Of a stretch of DNA of 64,000 nucleotides, positions 40,663 to 58,231 are shown piece by piece. The DNA is from Escherichia phage vB_EcoM_ESCO25. The DNA is taken from the sequence record OM386656.1, one strand, 5' to 3'. Made by a program: the position numbers and the translations under genes. Position 1 is the stretch's first letter. Every line of letters begins with the position of its first letter. Under the pieces are notes generated by a model that was given only the letters and a program-made list of their open reading frames with translations, searched no databases and was not told the origin of the DNA.

Positions 40663-41113
40663 TCGCCGTTTTGGTCCATAATCTTTGATTATCTGACCCT
40701 CTGAAAGGTTTTGTGGTTGGATTGTTTATTTCATACTTTCCGTCTACAATAATGTCAACAAGATTTTTAATATACAAAGGCACTTCCTCAAAAGTATATC
40801 CTGTATACACCATTATATCTTTGCTTGACCCATAAACGTCTCTAACCTTTTCTATAAGGTTTTTAACATTGTAAATATTCTGCGGATCTAATGGTTCTCC
40901 TCCTAAAATTGTTAAACCTTTTACAAACGGTCTTGACAAATCTTTTAAAACTTGCTCTACATTTTCGTTAGTGAACGGTTTCCCATAAGAATAAGACCAG
41001 GCTTTCTGGTTAAAACAGCCACGACAACCGTGGCTACAACCACTAACCCAGAGGGAGCACCTAACTCCCTCACCATTAATAAGATCTACAGGTTCATATC
41101 CTGCAAAATTCAA
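40643..41113 (-). CDS. nrdG: anaerobic ribonucleotide reductase activating protein (radical SAM)
   Basis: 156-aa ORF; CSLWVSGCSHGCRGCFN cysteine cluster; directly downstream of nrdD. Confidence 0.85.
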   Translation of the reverse strand: MNFAGYEPVDLINGEGVRCSLWVSGCSHGCRGCFNQKAWSYSYGKPFTNENVEQVLKDLSRPFVKGLTILGGEPLDPQNIYNVKNLIEKVRDVYGSSKDIMVYTGYTFEEVPLYIKNLVDIIVDGKYEINNPTTKPFRGSDNQRLWTKTASGWQSD

Positions 41114-42924
41114 AGATGTTTCTCCCTTTGCAAAACTTCCTGCATTTTACCTTTGTTATAAGGCCGTGAATTAGGGGCAGAAAGATACCCTGATACACGT
41201 CTAACTACAGAAATAGTTTCTTCTTCATGGTTGCCACAATTAGGACACTCAAACCCTTTAGCCGTTGCCTTAAATTCTCCATGAAAACCACACTTAAAGC
41301 ATTGATCCACGGGCTGATTAATACCAAAATAGTGAATATGTTCATAAGCGTAGTCTACTAAAGTCTCCAAAGCTTCTAAGTTATTCTTTAAGTTTGGTGT
41401 TTCGACATAACTTATGTTACCACCATTGCTAATCTGTGCAAAACCTGCTTCATAATCCCATTTTTCAAAAGGATTTGTTACCAACCATACAGGTTGATGA
41501 AAAGAATTAGTAAGATAGTCTCTTTCTACCAGACCTGGATATTTTTCATTTAAAGCTGTTGCAAATTTATAGCACAAGGATTCTGCTGGAGTTCCATAAA
41601 GACTAAATGCCAACTTAGATCGTTCTTTAAACACAGCACACACATCTTTCATATGTTGCAGAATGTTTTTACCTAGTTCCTTTTTATCTTTTTCCTCTGG
41701 ATAAAGGATTTCCAAAGCTTCGGCAAGACCTACATAACCAATACTAATAGAAGCATAACCACCTTCAAACAAAGCACCAATTTCATCGTTGGCATTTAAA
41801 CGCGCTAAAGCCCCTTCCATGAAAAGAATAGGGTTTTCAGATGCTTTGGTATGTCTGATACGGTTTACACGTAGCATGTGAGCATCGTAGGCTATCTCCA
41901 TATGTTTATTAAGAAGATCGGTGAAAGATTCTCCTTTACTTCTCGCTTCCGCAGCAATCAGAGGCAAGTTGATAGAAACTACTCCAAGGTTGAATCGTCC
42001 ATCATATTTTTCTCCTTGTTCGGTGGCATAGTACGACAAAAAGGAACGACAACCCATACTCGTAACGGTACCATCTGCTGATCCCGTAACTTCTTTGTTC
42101 AAAGGAACAGAAATAAAATCTGGATAAATACGATCAGCACAACATGCCAAAGCTTGTTGCTTAAGGTCGTAGTTAGGATCACTAGGTTTCATGTTAACAC
42201 CTTCTTGTAAAAAGAAAATAACTTTAGGGAATACAGGCGTTACATGATCTTTACCTAGACCGTTACTATGCACTTTAAGATAGTTAGCTGTGATCATTCT
42301 GCCAAAAACAGAGGTATCCAGACCCATACTGATTGTAATAAAAGGAGATTGTCCATTAACACTCATTAAAGTGTTAACCTGATACAAAAGAGTTTGCATA
42401 GCGTCATATACATCTTGTTCGGTCATTTCTAGGGCTTCTTTCCTTGCATAACAACCGTAGCGACGTTTGGTTATCTCCATGTTTTTAAGGAAACTGGCTT
42501 CAACATAAGGACTAAGACCTTTATCAATGTGCGCACACGTCTGACCTCCATACTGACTGGAGGCAACAGCTTGGATGATTTGAGTTAGCACTGTAGTAGC
42601 TACTCCAATAGATTTTGGTTTTTCTATCTGTGCAGCACCGATCTTAAAACCATTCTCTAACATATCTTGATAATTAACAAGACAACAGTTTGTAAGAGGA
42701 GAGAGCAGATAATCCAAGTCGTGAATATGTCCAAAACCTTCTGTATGCCATTCTGACAAGTTTTTTGGCAGTATCTGTGTCATTGCCATATGTTTGCTTA
42801 AAATCCCCGCCAAGAGATCCCTGTGCGTGTTAACAAGGTGGGAAGGTTTGTTTGCATTCTCTCTAGTGTATGTTTCTGAAGTGCGATCTAAAAAAGAAAA
42901 AACATCTTGGTACAAATCTTTCAT
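41110..42924 (-). CDS. nrdD: anaerobic ribonucleoside-triphosphate reductase (class III)
   Basis: 604-aa ORF; C-terminal CxxC...CxxC then glycyl-radical motif RRVSGYL. Confidence 0.85.
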   Translation of the reverse strand: MKDLYQDVFSFLDRTSETYTRENANKPSHLVNTHRDLLAGILSKHMAMTQILPKNLSEWHTEGFGHIHDLDYLLSPLTNCCLVNYQDMLENGFKIGAAQIEKPKSIGVATTVLTQIIQAVASSQYGGQTCAHIDKGLSPYVEASFLKNMEITKRRYGCYARKEALEMTEQDVYDAMQTLLYQVNTLMSVNGQSPFITISMGLDTSVFGRMITANYLKVHSNGLGKDHVTPVFPKVIFFLQEGVNMKPSDPNYDLKQQALACCADRIYPDFISVPLNKEVTGSADGTVTSMGCRSFLSYYATEQGEKYDGRFNLGVVSINLPLIAAEARSKGESFTDLLNKHMEIAYDAHMLRVNRIRHTKASENPILFMEGALARLNANDEIGALFEGGYASISIGYVGLAEALEILYPEEKDKKELGKNILQHMKDVCAVFKERSKLAFSLYGTPAESLCYKFATALNEKYPGLVERDYLTNSFHQPVWLVTNPFEKWDYEAGFAQISNGGNISYVETPNLKNNLEALETLVDYAYEHIHYFGINQPVDQCFKCGFHGEFKATAKGFECPNCGNHEEETISVVRRVSGYLSAPNSRPYNKGKMQEVLQREKHL

Positions 42925-54095: not shown

Positions 54096-54452
54096 ATGAA
54101 AAAACTAATCTTAGCCACATTGCTGGCTACCGTAAGCTTCACCACTTACGCTCAAAAATTTGTAGCAGTTAAAACAGATATTGGTAAAGATGTTGTGATC
54201 ACAGGCAACAAGTTTTACTATACACCTGGGAATGGTGTTCTAGAAGAGTGTAAAGATGTTGAGGCATATACGGGAAAAGAAGATAACACGGAACGTCCTT
54301 TTTATTCGATTATAGCTACTTGCAAAAATGAAATAGTAGCTATTAAACAATACAAAGATGCCCCTGGAGGAGAATACTTATTAGTCAAGAATATTAAGAG
54401 TGAAAAAACTGCAAAGTTTACAGTAATTATTTTAAAAGGAGAAACGTTCTAA
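54096..54452 (+). CDS. secreted protein (signal peptide)
   Basis: Start at ATG 54096 (SD GGAGGG); MKKLILATLLATVSFTTYAQ signal peptide. Confidence 0.55.
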   Translation: MKKLILATLLATVSFTTYAQKFVAVKTDIGKDVVITGNKFYYTPGNGVLEECKDVEAYTGKEDNTERPFYSIIATCKNEIVAIKQYKDAPGGEYLLVKNIKSEKTAKFTVIILKGETF

Positions 54453-55591
54453 TGAAATACACTATTTTTGGAGATGTAGCTGTTGTAAATAAGGAATATG
54501 GCGTTGAAGCTAATAAACTTCCTGCTGGAGTTTGGGTTGTCAACTGCGATCCGCACGGTAACTACTCTTTAGTGCGTGGTGAAAGTTTCTCTCTTCCGAA
54601 CACTCTTTATGGGGAAACTAAAGATCGCGCCGCACATGTTATTAAAACATTTGCTCGTCGTAGTAAAGAAGGTAAAAATACTGGGGTGTTACTGACAGGG
54701 ACAAAAGGCAGTGGTAAGACGATGTTAGCTAAACTAATTAGCATGTCTCTAATGTCCACAGAAGGTTTAGGTATTCCAACCATTTTGGTTACACAGCCTT
54801 ACACAGATGCTGGCTTCTTAGAATTTATGAGTAAAATTACAGATCGGGCTGTTGTTTTATTTGACGAATTTGATAAAGTGTACGCTAAGAAAGAAGATCA
54901 GGAAGCACTGTTGACCTTGTTGGATGGAACAGGAAGTGGGAATAAACTTTACATCCTCACTAAAAATAGTGGTTATATCTCGGAATATTTTGTAAACCGT
55001 CCTAGTCGTATCTACTACAGTTTCAATTACGATAAACTGTCTAGTGAAACTATGTTAGATTACTTGGATAAGAACTTGGTAAATAAAAAGCACGTAGATA
55101 ACTTCCAACGTTTATGGGATGTTAGCACAGAGTTGTCTTTCGATGTTATTCAAGGCATTGTAGAAGAATTGAATTTCTATCCAAAAATGACTTTTAAAGA
55201 ATGTCTTGAAATGATGGGTATTTCTTTAGGGAACGATGCTAAATGGAATGTGGCTTCTATCGTAGCTAATGGCAAAACCTTGAAGGTGAATTGGATCAAT
55301 AACTGGCACGACTTCACCCCTACTAAGTTTTTGTCGGGTGCTTGTTCCCTGAACATCTATCTACAAAGTTTGAAAGATGATGAAGTGGAAGCAATGGAAA
55401 CCAACAGTTATGTTATCCTGGATGAAGATGGTGATCCACATATTGATCTATGTGCAACGGCTGATGGTCTAACTTGTGATCTGATTGAAGGTGGTAAGAT
55501 TCTGGTTATGAGCACTACACCAGGAAACACTTTGCGAGTGGTGCTGGAGCCTGTAACACAACGTTCCACTACACTTGGTAGCGTGTTCTAA
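54452..55591 (+). CDS. AAA+ family ATPase
   Basis: 379-aa ORF; Walker A GTKGSGKT, Walker B VVLFDEFD; strong terminator downstream. Confidence 0.7.
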   Translation: MKYTIFGDVAVVNKEYGVEANKLPAGVWVVNCDPHGNYSLVRGESFSLPNTLYGETKDRAAHVIKTFARRSKEGKNTGVLLTGTKGSGKTMLAKLISMSLMSTEGLGIPTILVTQPYTDAGFLEFMSKITDRAVVLFDEFDKVYAKKEDQEALLTLLDGTGSGNKLYILTKNSGYISEYFVNRPSRIYYSFNYDKLSSETMLDYLDKNLVNKKHVDNFQRLWDVSTELSFDVIQGIVEELNFYPKMTFKECLEMMGISLGNDAKWNVASIVANGKTLKVNWINNWHDFTPTKFLSGACSLNIYLQSLKDDEVEAMETNSYVILDEDGDPHIDLCATADGLTCDLIEGGKILVMSTTPGNTLRVVLEPVTQRSTTLGSVF

Positions 55592-55596
55592 TAAAG

Positions 55597-55619
55597 ATGC
55601 CCCGCAAGGGGCATTTGTT
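55597..55619 (+). terminator. rho-independent terminator after AAA+ ATPase gene
   Basis: GATGCCCC-GCAA-GGGGCAT then TTGTT. Confidence 0.7.
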
Positions 55620-55679
55620 ATGGAGGGATTTTAGTTATTCTTTTGTTGTAGGCTCGCACTAATAGCTAAAGGGGGAGGT

Positions 55680-57140
55680 GTGCCAAAAATAGTCACTTGG
55701 GAACAATATAAAACAGATATAAAACAAGCTTATCAAGGTAAGTCTTGGACTGTTGTAGATTATATTGAGCCGTGGAACGGCAATAAAACTAAACTTAGAT
55801 GCATCTGTGCTCTGCATGGAGAATGGAAAACAACAAGCATAAATACCGCTAAACTAGGGAGGGGTTGTCCAGAATGCGGTAGGGAGATTATAAGTAAAGC
55901 AGTATCTATAAACAAATCAAAAACCTGGGAGCAATATAAAGAAGAAGTGCAAACCACTTACAATCAGGCAGGTAAGTTTTGGACTGTTACAGGATGGCAC
56001 GGAGAATGGAAAGGATGGAATACTAAACTGGTTTGTTGTTGTGCTTTACATGGGGAGTGGAGGTCTACTTCTATATCTTCTGCGAAAAACGGGAGTGGAT
56101 GCAGGAAGTGTATGGGAGAAGCAAACAGAGAAAGAACATCGATTGCATGGGAGAAACATAAAGAAGAAGTAGAAGAAGCTTATAAAGAAAAACCCTGGAT
56201 TGTTAGAGGCTATGTGGAACCGTGGAACGGTTCCCGCACTAAGTTGATTTGTGAGTGTAAGGTTCATGGTCAATGGTGCACTACCACTGTAAACAGTGCT
56301 AAACAAGGGACTGGATGCTACAGTTGTCAAAGAGAAATGACGAAACAAAGGAATACAATGGAGGATAAACAACATGTTGAAGATTTTATAAAAGCTTGTC
56401 CTGATAATGTAGAGCGTAAATATTATCGTAGCGATAGAGTAGATAGATTAGGTCGTCAGGTTTACTGGATTGTAGAATGTCCTATATGTGCAGAGGATGA
56501 TTATTGTAAAGAAGGCTTATGCGATAATAAATTTGAGATGAAGATGAGTCATTTGAAAAGGGGTGGCCTTCCTTGCCGTTGTTCTAAATATTATCATTAC
56601 ACTCCTGAACAATGGGCCTACCGTATGACCAAAGCTTGCCAGGAACGAGGGGATCAATTTATAGGATTCATTGATAAGGTAAGCAATAACAGCAAGTTTA
56701 AATATCTATGTAGGGAGCATGGAGAGCAAACGATCACACCTACCGATTATCTCAATGGGAAAGGTTGTCCAGGCTGTAAGAACAGAAATATGCAAGAATT
56801 TTACATCAATATTATTCTTGATGAGTACGGAGAAGACACGGGAGCTTACAAGTTGGGGATTGCAAAGGACAGTGATATCAGGATCAAAGGGCAGAATGCA
56901 AACAACAATTACTCTATGCGCCGTATAGCATTGTTCGATCTGCCGTCCTACCAAGCTTGCAGGGCGTTAGAGAGTAAGCTAAAGTCTAAGACTGATCAGA
57001 TTCTACCGTCTATTGGCTGTGTAGAACGCTTGCACATGAAAGATGGTCATAGTGAAACCTTCCTGCGCGAGGATTTGGCTATCGTCTTAAGTGCTATCAA
57101 CCAAGCAGGTGGAATAATGAGAGAGGAGGAAACATGTTAG
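55680..57140 (+). CDS. protein with three tandem Cys-rich zinc-ribbon-like repeats and a C-terminal T5orf172 (GIY-YIG-like) domain; putative nuclease/DNA-binding
   Basis: 486-aa ORF with GTG start; three copies of W..Y...W.V..Y.EPWNG..TKL.C.C..HGEW..TS...AK.G.GC..C; C-terminal GAYKLGIAKDSDIR...GHSETF. Confidence 0.45.
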   Translation: MPKIVTWEQYKTDIKQAYQGKSWTVVDYIEPWNGNKTKLRCICALHGEWKTTSINTAKLGRGCPECGREIISKAVSINKSKTWEQYKEEVQTTYNQAGKFWTVTGWHGEWKGWNTKLVCCCALHGEWRSTSISSAKNGSGCRKCMGEANRERTSIAWEKHKEEVEEAYKEKPWIVRGYVEPWNGSRTKLICECKVHGQWCTTTVNSAKQGTGCYSCQREMTKQRNTMEDKQHVEDFIKACPDNVERKYYRSDRVDRLGRQVYWIVECPICAEDDYCKEGLCDNKFEMKMSHLKRGGLPCRCSKYYHYTPEQWAYRMTKACQERGDQFIGFIDKVSNNSKFKYLCREHGEQTITPTDYLNGKGCPGCKNRNMQEFYINIILDEYGEDTGAYKLGIAKDSDIRIKGQNANNNYSMRRIALFDLPSYQACRALESKLKSKTDQILPSIGCVERLHMKDGHSETFLREDLAIVLSAINQAGGIMREEETC

Positions 57141-57499
57141 TTGACGTTCAAATTATGCGCAACGAAAGAATGGACTTCTTTGAAGCAGTAGAGAAACATC
57201 TGATCAGATGGGACTATGAATTTGTTCCTGCTGGATGTGGACCAGTAGAGCATTTAGCGGAAGACGACGATGTATACATGATCATTCGTCAAGTGTACCA
57301 GACAGACCAGTGTGAAGAAACTCCCGAACTGATTTTGTTTGAGTGTAAAGATCTTGCAAAATATTTTGACTATGGCGGAAAAGAGGGTCATAATCTCTCC
57401 AGATACAATAAACGTCTACTTATCTTAGACTACATGCGGAACAACAAACACAAACTCATCGACGCAGACGCAGTTTATGGCTACTGGTGGATGGACTAA
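57134..57499 (+). CDS. hypothetical acidic protein
   Basis: 121-aa ORF, SD GAGGAGGA. Confidence 0.5.
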   Translation: MLVDVQIMRNERMDFFEAVEKHLIRWDYEFVPAGCGPVEHLAEDDDVYMIIRQVYQTDQCEETPELILFECKDLAKYFDYGGKEGHNLSRYNKRLLILDYMRNNKHKLIDADAVYGYWWMD

Positions 57500-57512
57500 C
57501 AAAGGAGAAACT

Positions 57513-57692
57513 ATGGCACGTTTAGCAGATCATGAAATCTTTAAACCTATTCTGAACCACTATGATGAACTTAAAGCAGTGTTGGATTGTTATAGAGAGG
57601 ATGAAGAACGTTTGGAAGTCAATCTTAAGATAGTTCTGATGAAAGCTTTTCAAGACGGGCAAGCTAAAGTTTTAGAAGGCATGAAAAAATGA
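57513..57692 (+). CDS. small hypothetical protein
   Basis: Start at ATG 57513 (SD AAGGAG); 59 aa. Confidence 0.45.
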   Translation: MARLADHEIFKPILNHYDELKAVLDCYREDEERLEVNLKIVLMKAFQDGQAKVLEGMKK

Positions 57693-58231
57693 GAATAACT
57701 GATGAATATGTATTCTTCTTTTCACATAAAGATGTGTTTAGTAATTGGTATATTGCACCCTTTACAGAAACTGAACCAGGTTACAATGAGACTTTCTGTT
57801 GTGTTGAGCAATATATGATGTGGCGTAAGGCTTTGCTGTTCAAGGATCATGCGATTGCAGCAGCTATCCTTGATCACTCAACTATACGTGACAACGAGAG
57901 GAAACAAGCATACTACAAACGTATGGGTCGAGCGGTATCTGGTTTTAATAATGATATGTGGGAAGAGAACCGTGAGCGTATTGTTATGCGAGGCTTATGC
58001 TTGAAATATGTACAGAATCCAGATTTGTATGCAGACTTACACCTTTACCAATACAAAACGTTTGTTGAAGCAAGTCCTTACGATAAGGTTTACGGTATTG
58101 GAATGGGAATGTATGAACCAGGGGTGCTAAACCCTGCTACCTGGAAAGGGCAGAATCTTTTAGGAAAATATCATAATAAACTGATCGAAATACTTTTCCC
58201 AGACAAAATACCGCAAAGACGATATTTGTGA
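57689..58231 (+). CDS. NADAR-domain (YbiA-like) protein
   Basis: 180-aa ORF; FFFSHKDVFSNWY, CVEQYMMWRKALLF and EASPYDKVYGIGMG match NADAR conserved blocks. Confidence 0.75.
   Translation: MRITDEYVFFFSHKDVFSNWYIAPFTETEPGYNETFCCVEQYMMWRKALLFKDHAIAAAILDHSTIRDNERKQAYYKRMGRAVSGFNNDMWEENRERIVMRGLCLKYVQNPDLYADLHLYQYKTFVEASPYDKVYGIGMGMYEPGVLNPATWKGQNLLGKYHNKLIEILFPDKIPQRRYL

Follow-up and report, generated by a model that had tools for sequence, protein, structure and literature searches.

Identification and genomic setting of the gene

The window analysed here, 64,000 nt of Escherichia phage vB_EcoM_ESCO25 (sequence record OM386656.1), encodes a 486-aa protein with a tandemly repeated Cys-rich N-terminal region, which raises the question of whether it represents an unusual mode of nucleic-acid recognition or a variant of an established protein family. 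The window belongs to the Phapecoctavirus group (phAPEC8-like coliphage myoviruses, Stephanstirmvirinae). Across a 3-kb stretch around the gene, ESCO13, ESCO37, REC, and others are 100% identical to it, and further Phapecoctavirus members show 95-99.9% identity. The protein itself is 100% identical to ESCO13 gp171 (YP_009786705; 'endonuclease' in RefSeq) and matches the PHROG 681 family 'endonuclease' with an E-value of 8.8e-84. The same ORF is annotated in ESCO13, ZCKP1, ASO2A, and WPEC4, and it is intact in 22 of the 70 matching phage records. Searches with the protein returned no match in NCBIfam, and a tblastn search for paralogues against the 64-kb window returned only the protein itself. 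A weak tblastn match at 41233-41364 on the minus strand, considered as a paralogue, was rejected as a chance match to the C-terminal zinc ribbon of NrdD.

A GGAGG core lies just 1 nt ahead of the GTG start of the gene; in the ESCO13 record, an AAGGGGG site is annotated at a distance of 4 nt from the start, also upstream. A promoter scan detected no sigma-70-like promoter directly upstream, and the RNA fold of the 5' region was indistinguishable from that of shuffled sequence (z = -0.96). Given the lack of such a promoter and the terminator-like hairpin ahead of the gene (Table 1), its expression may be low.

Table 1. Coordinates of features at the locus, in positions of the window. HEG, homing endonuclease gene; RBS, ribosome-binding site.
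Feature	Position	Strand	Details
AAA-type ATPase gene	54452-55591		Upstream neighbour of the HEG; PF00004
GC-rich hairpin (ATGCCCCGCAAGGGGCAT) with T-rich tail	55597..55620	+	Terminator-like; just past the ATPase stop codon
HEG cassette	55617..57124	+	Segment of ~1.5 kb missing from phiWec188; between the hairpin and the downstream RBS
Putative free-standing HEG	55680..57140	+	486 aa; GTG start; intact ORF
CapR-homology module R1 (predicted zinc finger)	55692..55889	+	aa 5-70; PF21817 E 7.5e-6, 26.5 bits
CapR-homology module R2	55920..56123	+	aa 81-148; PF21817 E 1.5e-4, 22.3 bits
CapR-homology module R3	56142..56339	+	aa 155-220; PF21817 E 1.1e-4, 22.8 bits
CapR-homology module R4	56364..56594	+	aa 229-305; PF21817 E 2e-10, 41.1 bits
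CapR-homology module R5	56595..56789	+	aa 306-370; PF21817 E 1.5e-9, 38.3 bits
GIY-YIG-superfamily nuclease domain, probably of T5orf172/MUG113 type	56790..57137	+	aa 371-486
GGAGGAAAC RBS and ATG of the 121-aa gene	57125..57136	+	
121-aa gene	57134-57499		Downstream neighbour of the HEG; no assigned function

An N-terminal array of five CapR-homology modules

The Pfam profile PF21817 ('CapR homology domain') matched the whole protein at 99.3 bits (E 1.4e-28) over five stretches. Taken singly, R1, R4, and R5 exceed the gathering score of this profile (24.2 bits), and R2 and R3 fall slightly under it; DUF723 and DUF4379 ('probable treble clef', E 0.22) appeared as weak secondary Pfam matches of the modules. 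The three tandem Cys-rich copies recognized in the initial annotation are present as R1-R3, each of ~65 aa and hereafter referred to as type A. They share 45-53% pairwise identity at the protein level and 66-76% over their best DNA stretches, with DNA start-to-start distances of 228 and 222 nt. Because the self-offset tblastn alignment of the repeats reached an E-value of 3.6e-36 and the CapR profile recurs over all five stretches, these tandem repeats lie far beyond chance. Their spacing, first put at about 85 residues, measures 72-78 aa (C41, C119, C191; W7, W83, W157), and the repeat motif as first written needs amending in repeat 2, which carries GWHGEWKGWNTKL in place of Y-x-E-P-W-N-G. 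The further CxxC pairs noted downstream are indeed present but form no separate feature, as they correspond to two diverged CapR copies, R4 and R5. These belong to the same domain as R1-R3, and the array therefore counts five modules.

Predicted metal ligands and fold of the modules

As in the CapR domain, each module contains two Cys/His pairs ~16-28 residues apart. The predicted ligands are C43, H46, C63, and C66 in R1; C121, H124, C141, and C144 in R2; C193, H196, C213, and C216 in R3; and C344, H347, C363, and C366 in R5. These four modules share a C-x2-H...C-x2-C pattern with 16 or 15 residues between the ligand pairs, whereas R4 has 28 and a predicted Cys4 pattern (C267-x2-C270...C299-x-C301) like that of CapR itself. 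Across 118 homologous type-A modules, the ligands are conserved as C(99%)-x2-H(83%)...C(100%)-x2-C(100%). The C-x-C previously taken as the motif core does not survive this comparison, its first Cys being unconserved in the same 118 modules. With the exception of H196, all ligands of R3-R5 are invariant in 25 full-length homologues.

An AlphaFold2 model of the 486-aa protein, computed from a 25-sequence alignment, gave a mean pLDDT of 84.3; values were ~89 in R2 and 55-73 in R1, the latter being low because the query alone covers the R1 region of the alignment. In the model, the elements of a module run in the order helix, three strands, short helix, C-x2-C pair, and final helix. The first ligand pair lies at the turn between strands 2 and 3, and the second (e.g. 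C63, C66) at the N-terminus of a helix (64-77), so that the predicted arrangement appears treble-clef-like more than it resembles a two-hairpin zinc ribbon. The earlier description of the repeats as zinc-ribbon-like was thus correct in recognizing metal-finger-type modules, every one of which matches the CapR homology domain, but probably imprecise as to their fold. Sequence searches for solved structures related to the finger region or to the nuclease profile found none. Each module probably binds one Zn2+ ion through its Cys3His or Cys4 set.

A diverged GIY-YIG-type nuclease domain at the C-terminus

When modelled alone, aa 371-486 yielded a beta-beta-alpha-beta-alpha core (pLDDT 92.2), the core fold of GIY-YIG nucleases. 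Invariant in the 25 homologues are Y375-I-N, K391-x-G393-I394, R401, Q405, N406, and N409, together with E431 and D455-G-x2-E459-T; in 129 more distant relatives, the Y, K-x-G, R, E, and D-G-x2-E-T positions are still invariant. With catalytic-type roles assigned from position in the predicted secondary structure rather than by superposition, these residues supply the strand 1 Tyr, the strand 2 motif, the helix 1 Arg, and the metal-binding Glu of a GIY-YIG domain.

The T5orf172-like C-terminus proposed in the initial annotation finds good support in this fold and weak support in sequence. Pfam T5orf172 (PF10544) gave no match to the full-length protein at E<=1, and the isolated C-terminal 125 aa scored 13.6 bits (E 0.099; profile positions 3-86 of 101), short of the 20-bit gathering score that applies to both T5orf172 and MUG113 (PF13455). 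Searched against 1.84 billion proteins, a profile of the nuclease domain recovered 770 cluster representatives (E<=1e-3). We examined 129 of the best 150 relatives, each with an E-value of at most 2e-23: CapR was found in 117 of these, DUF723 in 39, and DUF4379 in 26. T5orf172 was matched by 23 of the 129 (best E 6.4e-5) and MUG113 by 17 (best E 5e-6), most of them matching neither profile. The best match of the nuclease domain was SLX1, which is structure-specific. Based on the modelled fold, the invariant residues, and the T5orf172/MUG113 matches of its relatives, we assign the domain with confidence to the GIY-YIG superfamily and, with moderate confidence, to the T5orf172/MUG113 branch as a diverged subgroup.

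Cassette boundaries, empty site, and allele turnover

In phiWec188, the ATPase gene is followed after 45 nt by the 121-aa gene, and the HEG is absent. The junction at this empty site consists of the ATPase stop codon, the same hairpin, 9 nt, a GGAGGAAA ribosome-binding site, and the ATG of the 121-aa gene; phiWec190 gave the same match pattern. The hairpin, at whose position the ASO2A record annotates a rho-independent terminator, forms the upstream cassette edge and is retained at the empty site. At the opposite end, the last codons and stop of the HEG overlap the ribosome-binding site and start of the 121-aa gene.

A different situation was observed in ukendt, UP17, EcG1, and phAPEC8. Flanking sequences in these four phages match the window at 93-99% identity; homology breaks at 55594-55621 and resumes at 57108-57124, and the HEG alleles in between share 33-39% protein identity with the 486-aa protein. 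In the empty-site allele and in these four replaced alleles alike, homology resumes at, or at most 17 nt upstream of, the ribosome-binding site at 57125. In phiWec179 and PsgM04F, downstream homology resumes inside the HEG. The phiWec179 allele (337 aa) has no R1-R2; from R3 on it is 68% identical, with positional homology beginning in R3, at 56148. Other phapecoctaviruses carry alleles that are 33-42% identical and have one or two N-terminal modules, and some HEG allele occupies the locus in nearly all phapecoctaviruses among the matches listed.

As in free-standing HEGs, the gene displays presence/absence polymorphism and sits in a discrete cassette whose flanks are conserved and whose alleles turn over. 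Since an empty site, shared boundaries, and allele turnover are combined with an intact catalytic set, the pattern at the locus is as expected of a free-standing homing endonuclease gene, from which we infer cleavage and homing. The empty site and the divergent alleles fit homing, and they fit ordinary recombinational mosaicism too.

Variation in module number and sequence

The architecture survey covered 177 family proteins and seven locus alleles, with modules counted by three fixed HMMs (A, R4, and R5). The common architectures were A-R4-R5 (31) and A-A-R4-R5 (12). Within this set, A-A-A-R4-R5 was found only in the cluster of the 486-aa protein itself; a metagenomic protein of 527 aa (P0088) has four A modules. 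The three-module N-terminal expansion is uncommon, yet amounts to an established design with a different copy number. Among R1-R3, R2 is closest to the single N-terminal A module of the short alleles (62-69% aa identity), and R1 and R3 are ~50% identical to everything compared. A recent tandem duplication of R1-R3 was considered and rejected, given that their mutual identity is only 45-53% and that R2 lies nearer to the modules of other alleles. Tandem Repeats Finder detected no module-length array, returning only two short repeats of 9 and 11 nt.

At shorter evolutionary distances, Klebsiella phage ZCKP1 carries an identical HEG allele, and the allele of ASO2A and WPEC4 differs at 25 nt (11 aa). 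Eight of these 11 amino acid changes fall in R1-R2, and none in R4 or the nuclease. Against the same allele, dN/dS is 0.22, an estimate from 25 substitutions only, and the nuclease domain shows 0 nonsynonymous and 3 synonymous changes.

Relationship to known systems

The CapR finger (CxxC...CxC) was defined by Netter et al. 2021 (PMC8096241), who showed by EMSA that Cys-to-Ser mutations in the finger abolish sequence-specific DNA binding, and who reported its homology to the N-terminal regions of T5orf172 putative HEGs of ICP1. Barth et al. 2023 (PMC10448857) subsequently found CapR, DUF723, or DUF4397 (the paper's spelling) fingers in 200 of 229 T5orf172 HEGs, many of which bear several fingers like 'beads on a string'. 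The same study described recombination between intragenic repeats that alters copy number, turnover of the HEG content of individual sites, and dependence of the T5orf172 nuclease activity of Odn on a Glu; neither cleavage nor a target site nor homing had been experimentally verified for any CapR-type T5orf172 HEG (PMC10448857). Its dataset included the phapecoctaviruses Inny, Muut, and Mt1B1_P17, and the 486-aa protein is not named in its text or in the supplements searched. With a Pfam model available for the module and such fingers, often repeated, in 200 of 229 T5orf172 HEGs (PMC10448857), the array can no longer be called unusual, as it was at first. The initial annotation had set against its own proposal any homology to a well-characterised homing endonuclease family. 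Homology to a homing endonuclease family is what we found, the family in question having been described bioinformatically and not characterised biochemically.

The closest counterparts are the T5orf172 HEGs of ICP1 (e.g. gp165 and gp174; PMC10448857), which likewise combine N-terminal CapR-type modules, often repeated, with a C-terminal T5orf172/GIY-YIG nuclease, are free-standing between phage genes, and shift in copy number by recombination between repeats. A tblastn comparison with these ICP1 CapR-type HEGs gave 28% identity over aa 175-479 (E 2e-23). They differ in residing in a vibriophage rather than in an E. coli Phapecoctavirus; in addition, the 486-aa protein has five modules, three of which constitute a tandem type-A expansion, and its nuclease is too diverged to pass the Pfam T5orf172 threshold. 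CapR of the Vibrio cholerae PLE satellite (PMC8096241) shares the homologous zinc-finger domain PF21817, with the CxxC...CxC pattern recurring in R4. Unlike the 486-aa protein, CapR is a single module without a nuclease, domesticated as a transcriptional repressor of the ICP1 capsid operon.

More distant parallels are provided by the T4 Seg proteins and I-TevI. Here, too, a large lytic phage encodes a GIY-YIG fold tethered to a modular DNA-binding region, and the gene is free-standing or mobile. These endonucleases home by double-strand-break repair, a route that is predicted for the 486-aa protein. Their nuclease is N-terminal, whereas that of the 486-aa protein is C-terminal, and I-TevI binds DNA by a helix-turn-helix and minor-groove elements, its zinc finger serving as a linker or ruler and not as part of an array. 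The same-locus alleles (phAPEC8 gp013, ukendt gp053, UP17, EcG1, phiWec179, and PsgM04F) share the insertion site and the R4-R5-nuclease core, and in every case the stop overlaps the downstream ribosome-binding site and start; they differ in length (330-402 aa), in having one or two type-A modules where the 486-aa protein has three, and in sequence, at 33-68% protein identity. Finally, DUF723/DUF4379 arrays on other nucleases, such as P0027 (665 aa, Vsr/DUF559-like C-terminus) and the PHROG 559 HNH endonucleases, likewise use tandem treble-clef-type fingers as the targeting part but have another catalytic domain; only in the fingers do they resemble the 486-aa protein.

A model for the function of the locus and its alternatives

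We consider it about 75% probable that the gene encodes an active or recently active free-standing homing endonuclease of the GIY-YIG/T5orf172 type, targeted by five CapR zinc fingers. In its proposal of a metal-finger array for predicted nucleic-acid recognition joined to a T5orf172-like nuclease, the initial annotation was right in substance and is partly supported by these results. Under this model, the N-terminal 370 aa would fold as five independent CapR-homology modules, three tandem type-A copies followed by R4 and R5, which would recognize neighbouring segments of a long asymmetric DNA target, and the GIY-YIG-type domain tethered to this array would cut the DNA nearby. During co-infection, a phage genome lacking this allele would be cut and then mended with the HEG-carrying genome as template; the repair would copy the cassette, with some flanking sequence, into the site that separates the AAA-ATPase gene from the 121-aa gene. 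Recombination between modules would shift the number of type-A copies (1, 2, 3, or 4 in relatives), presumably altering the length or identity of the target.

The principal competitor, which we regard as unlikely, is a domesticated HEG derivative that no longer homes and instead serves the phage, either as a nuclease against competing phages or satellites or as a sequence-specific repressor of neighbouring genes. Occupation of the locus in nearly all phapecoctaviruses among the matches listed could reflect such a benefit, and the HEG and the 121-aa gene are coupled through the overlap between the stop of the former and the ribosome-binding site and start of the latter. Regulation by an enzyme of this fold has a parallel, in that I-TevI autorepresses. 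Precedents for both roles exist in CapR, a documented repressor (PMC8096241), and Odn, an anti-satellite nuclease (PMC10448857). However, the invariant catalytic-type residues argue against a pure DNA-binding repressor, the empty site in viable phages implies that the HEG is dispensable, and same-site alleles diverged down to 33% identity are more readily explained by HEG turnover than by a conserved host function; the protein also has no match in PADLOC.

That the gene is an inactive HEG in decay, persisting only as a passenger, is in our view very unlikely. HEGs commonly degenerate after fixation, and both the poor start context and the upstream terminator would suit such a fate, but the 22 records with an intact ORF, the preservation of every ligand and catalytic position, the dN/dS of 0.22, and the purely synonymous changes in the nuclease all point the other way. 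Least plausible of all, and in our judgement highly improbable, is a shape-based, dsRBD-like binding of RNA or double-stranded nucleic acid by the modules in place of DNA sequence recognition, which would make the protein an RNA- or structure-directed nuclease. Every module does follow the alpha-beta-beta-beta-alpha order of a dsRBD, tandem-dsRBD proteins are the best Foldseek PDB matches of the full model, Pfam DSRM_2 appears at E 0.068, and SLX1 is structure-specific. However, the dsRBD signals are all non-significant (Foldseek E-values of 4e-3 or more, probabilities no higher than 0.38, TM no higher than 0.24), Pfam and Foldseek gave no significant dsRNA-binding domain profile or fold match, a specific DNA site is bound by CapR through its homologous domain (PMC8096241), and at the genomic level the gene behaves as a DNA homing element.

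Within the homing endonuclease model, a more specific proposition concerns how the array would read its target. Cys2His2 finger arrays and TALEs are models of modular, additive DNA recognition, and the type-A CapR modules might similarly form an additive code with a fixed number of base pairs per module, a notion that we hold to be distinctly unlikely. If it were true, alleles with one, two, three, and four modules at one phage locus would constitute a natural series of differing target length and specificity, reprogrammed by gain, loss, or swap of modules, and the clustering of amino acid changes in R1-R2 (8 of 11) would represent ongoing retargeting.

Implications for phapecoctaviruses and CapR-type HEGs

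The 486-aa protein is an ordinary member of the family of T5orf172 HEGs with CapR fingers described in 2021-2023, its only distinctive trait being an unusually long type-A array. As it stands, the finding is of little importance, given that the gene was already annotated as an endonuclease, the module is in Pfam, and the architecture has been published. The locus nevertheless offers a clean natural example, in which one intergenic site of phAPEC8-like phages is found empty and is also found holding one of no fewer than five divergent HEG alleles, which bear 1-3 N-terminal fingers and mostly share one pair of cassette boundaries. As these are culturable E. coli phages, the locus is convenient for addressing homing and the relationship between finger number and target length.

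Junctions flanking the probable homing endonuclease gene

Alignment of the window with ZCKP1, which carries an identical allele of the free-standing homing endonuclease gene (HEG), and with ASO2A and WPEC4, which carry a near-identical one, places a recombination boundary about 360 bp 3' of the HEG. At about 57496-57530, where the 121-aa gene ends, divergence rises abruptly in all three comparisons: coding segments 5' of this point, the HEG included, differ by 0-2.5%, and positions 57500-58000 by 12-21%. A co-conversion tract may end at this boundary.

Upstream, the 88-nt spacer between the ATPase gene and the HEG differs from the window at 7 positions (about 8%) in ASO2A and WPEC4, and its hairpin-to-start portion (see table) is absent from shorter HEG alleles. 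This portion starts with GTTATGGAGGGATTTTAG, a sequence similar to the ribosome-binding-site region preceding the PsgM04F and phiWec179 alleles. The portion may be a relic of an earlier start region, resulting from upstream addition of the finger modules R1-R2. Two hairpin types follow the ATPase stop: ATGCCCCGCAAGGGGCAT is common to the window, ukendt, phiWec179 and the empty site of phiWec188, with a near-identical variant at the PsgM04F junction, and a distinct terminator hairpin, AAACCCGCTTCGGCGGGTTT, occurs in UP17, EcG1 and phAPEC8 (L004-L006). The hairpin thus moves with some cassettes and not with others.

Coordinates of features discussed in this section
Feature	Window position	Strand	Details
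Spacer, hairpin to GTG start of HEG	55617-55679		63 nt
NrdD-like anaerobic ribonucleotide reductase ORF	41110-42924	-	
NADAR-domain protein ORF	57689-58231	+	180 aa; PF08719, E 3.4e-35

Related proteins and genomic context

The metagenomic protein P0002 (669 aa) comprises, in a single ORF, two complete HEGs of the family arranged head-to-tail (A-R4-R5-nuclease twice), and represents either a genuine fusion or two adjacent HEGs merged through loss of a stop codon. Within the window, the sole other weak match to the finger modules is the C-terminal CxxC...CxxC zinc ribbon of the NrdD-like ORF (E 0.043), which we judged a chance match. ARAGORN found no tRNA genes across the 64-kb window, and the GC skew reverses around 16-18 kb and again around 52 kb, switch points that agree with shifts in transcription direction.

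The NADAR ORF near the HEG is named 'GTP cyclohydrolase II / COG3236' in several phage records. NADAR proteins reverse ADP-ribosylation of DNA, and the phage copy might therefore counter DarT-type defence.
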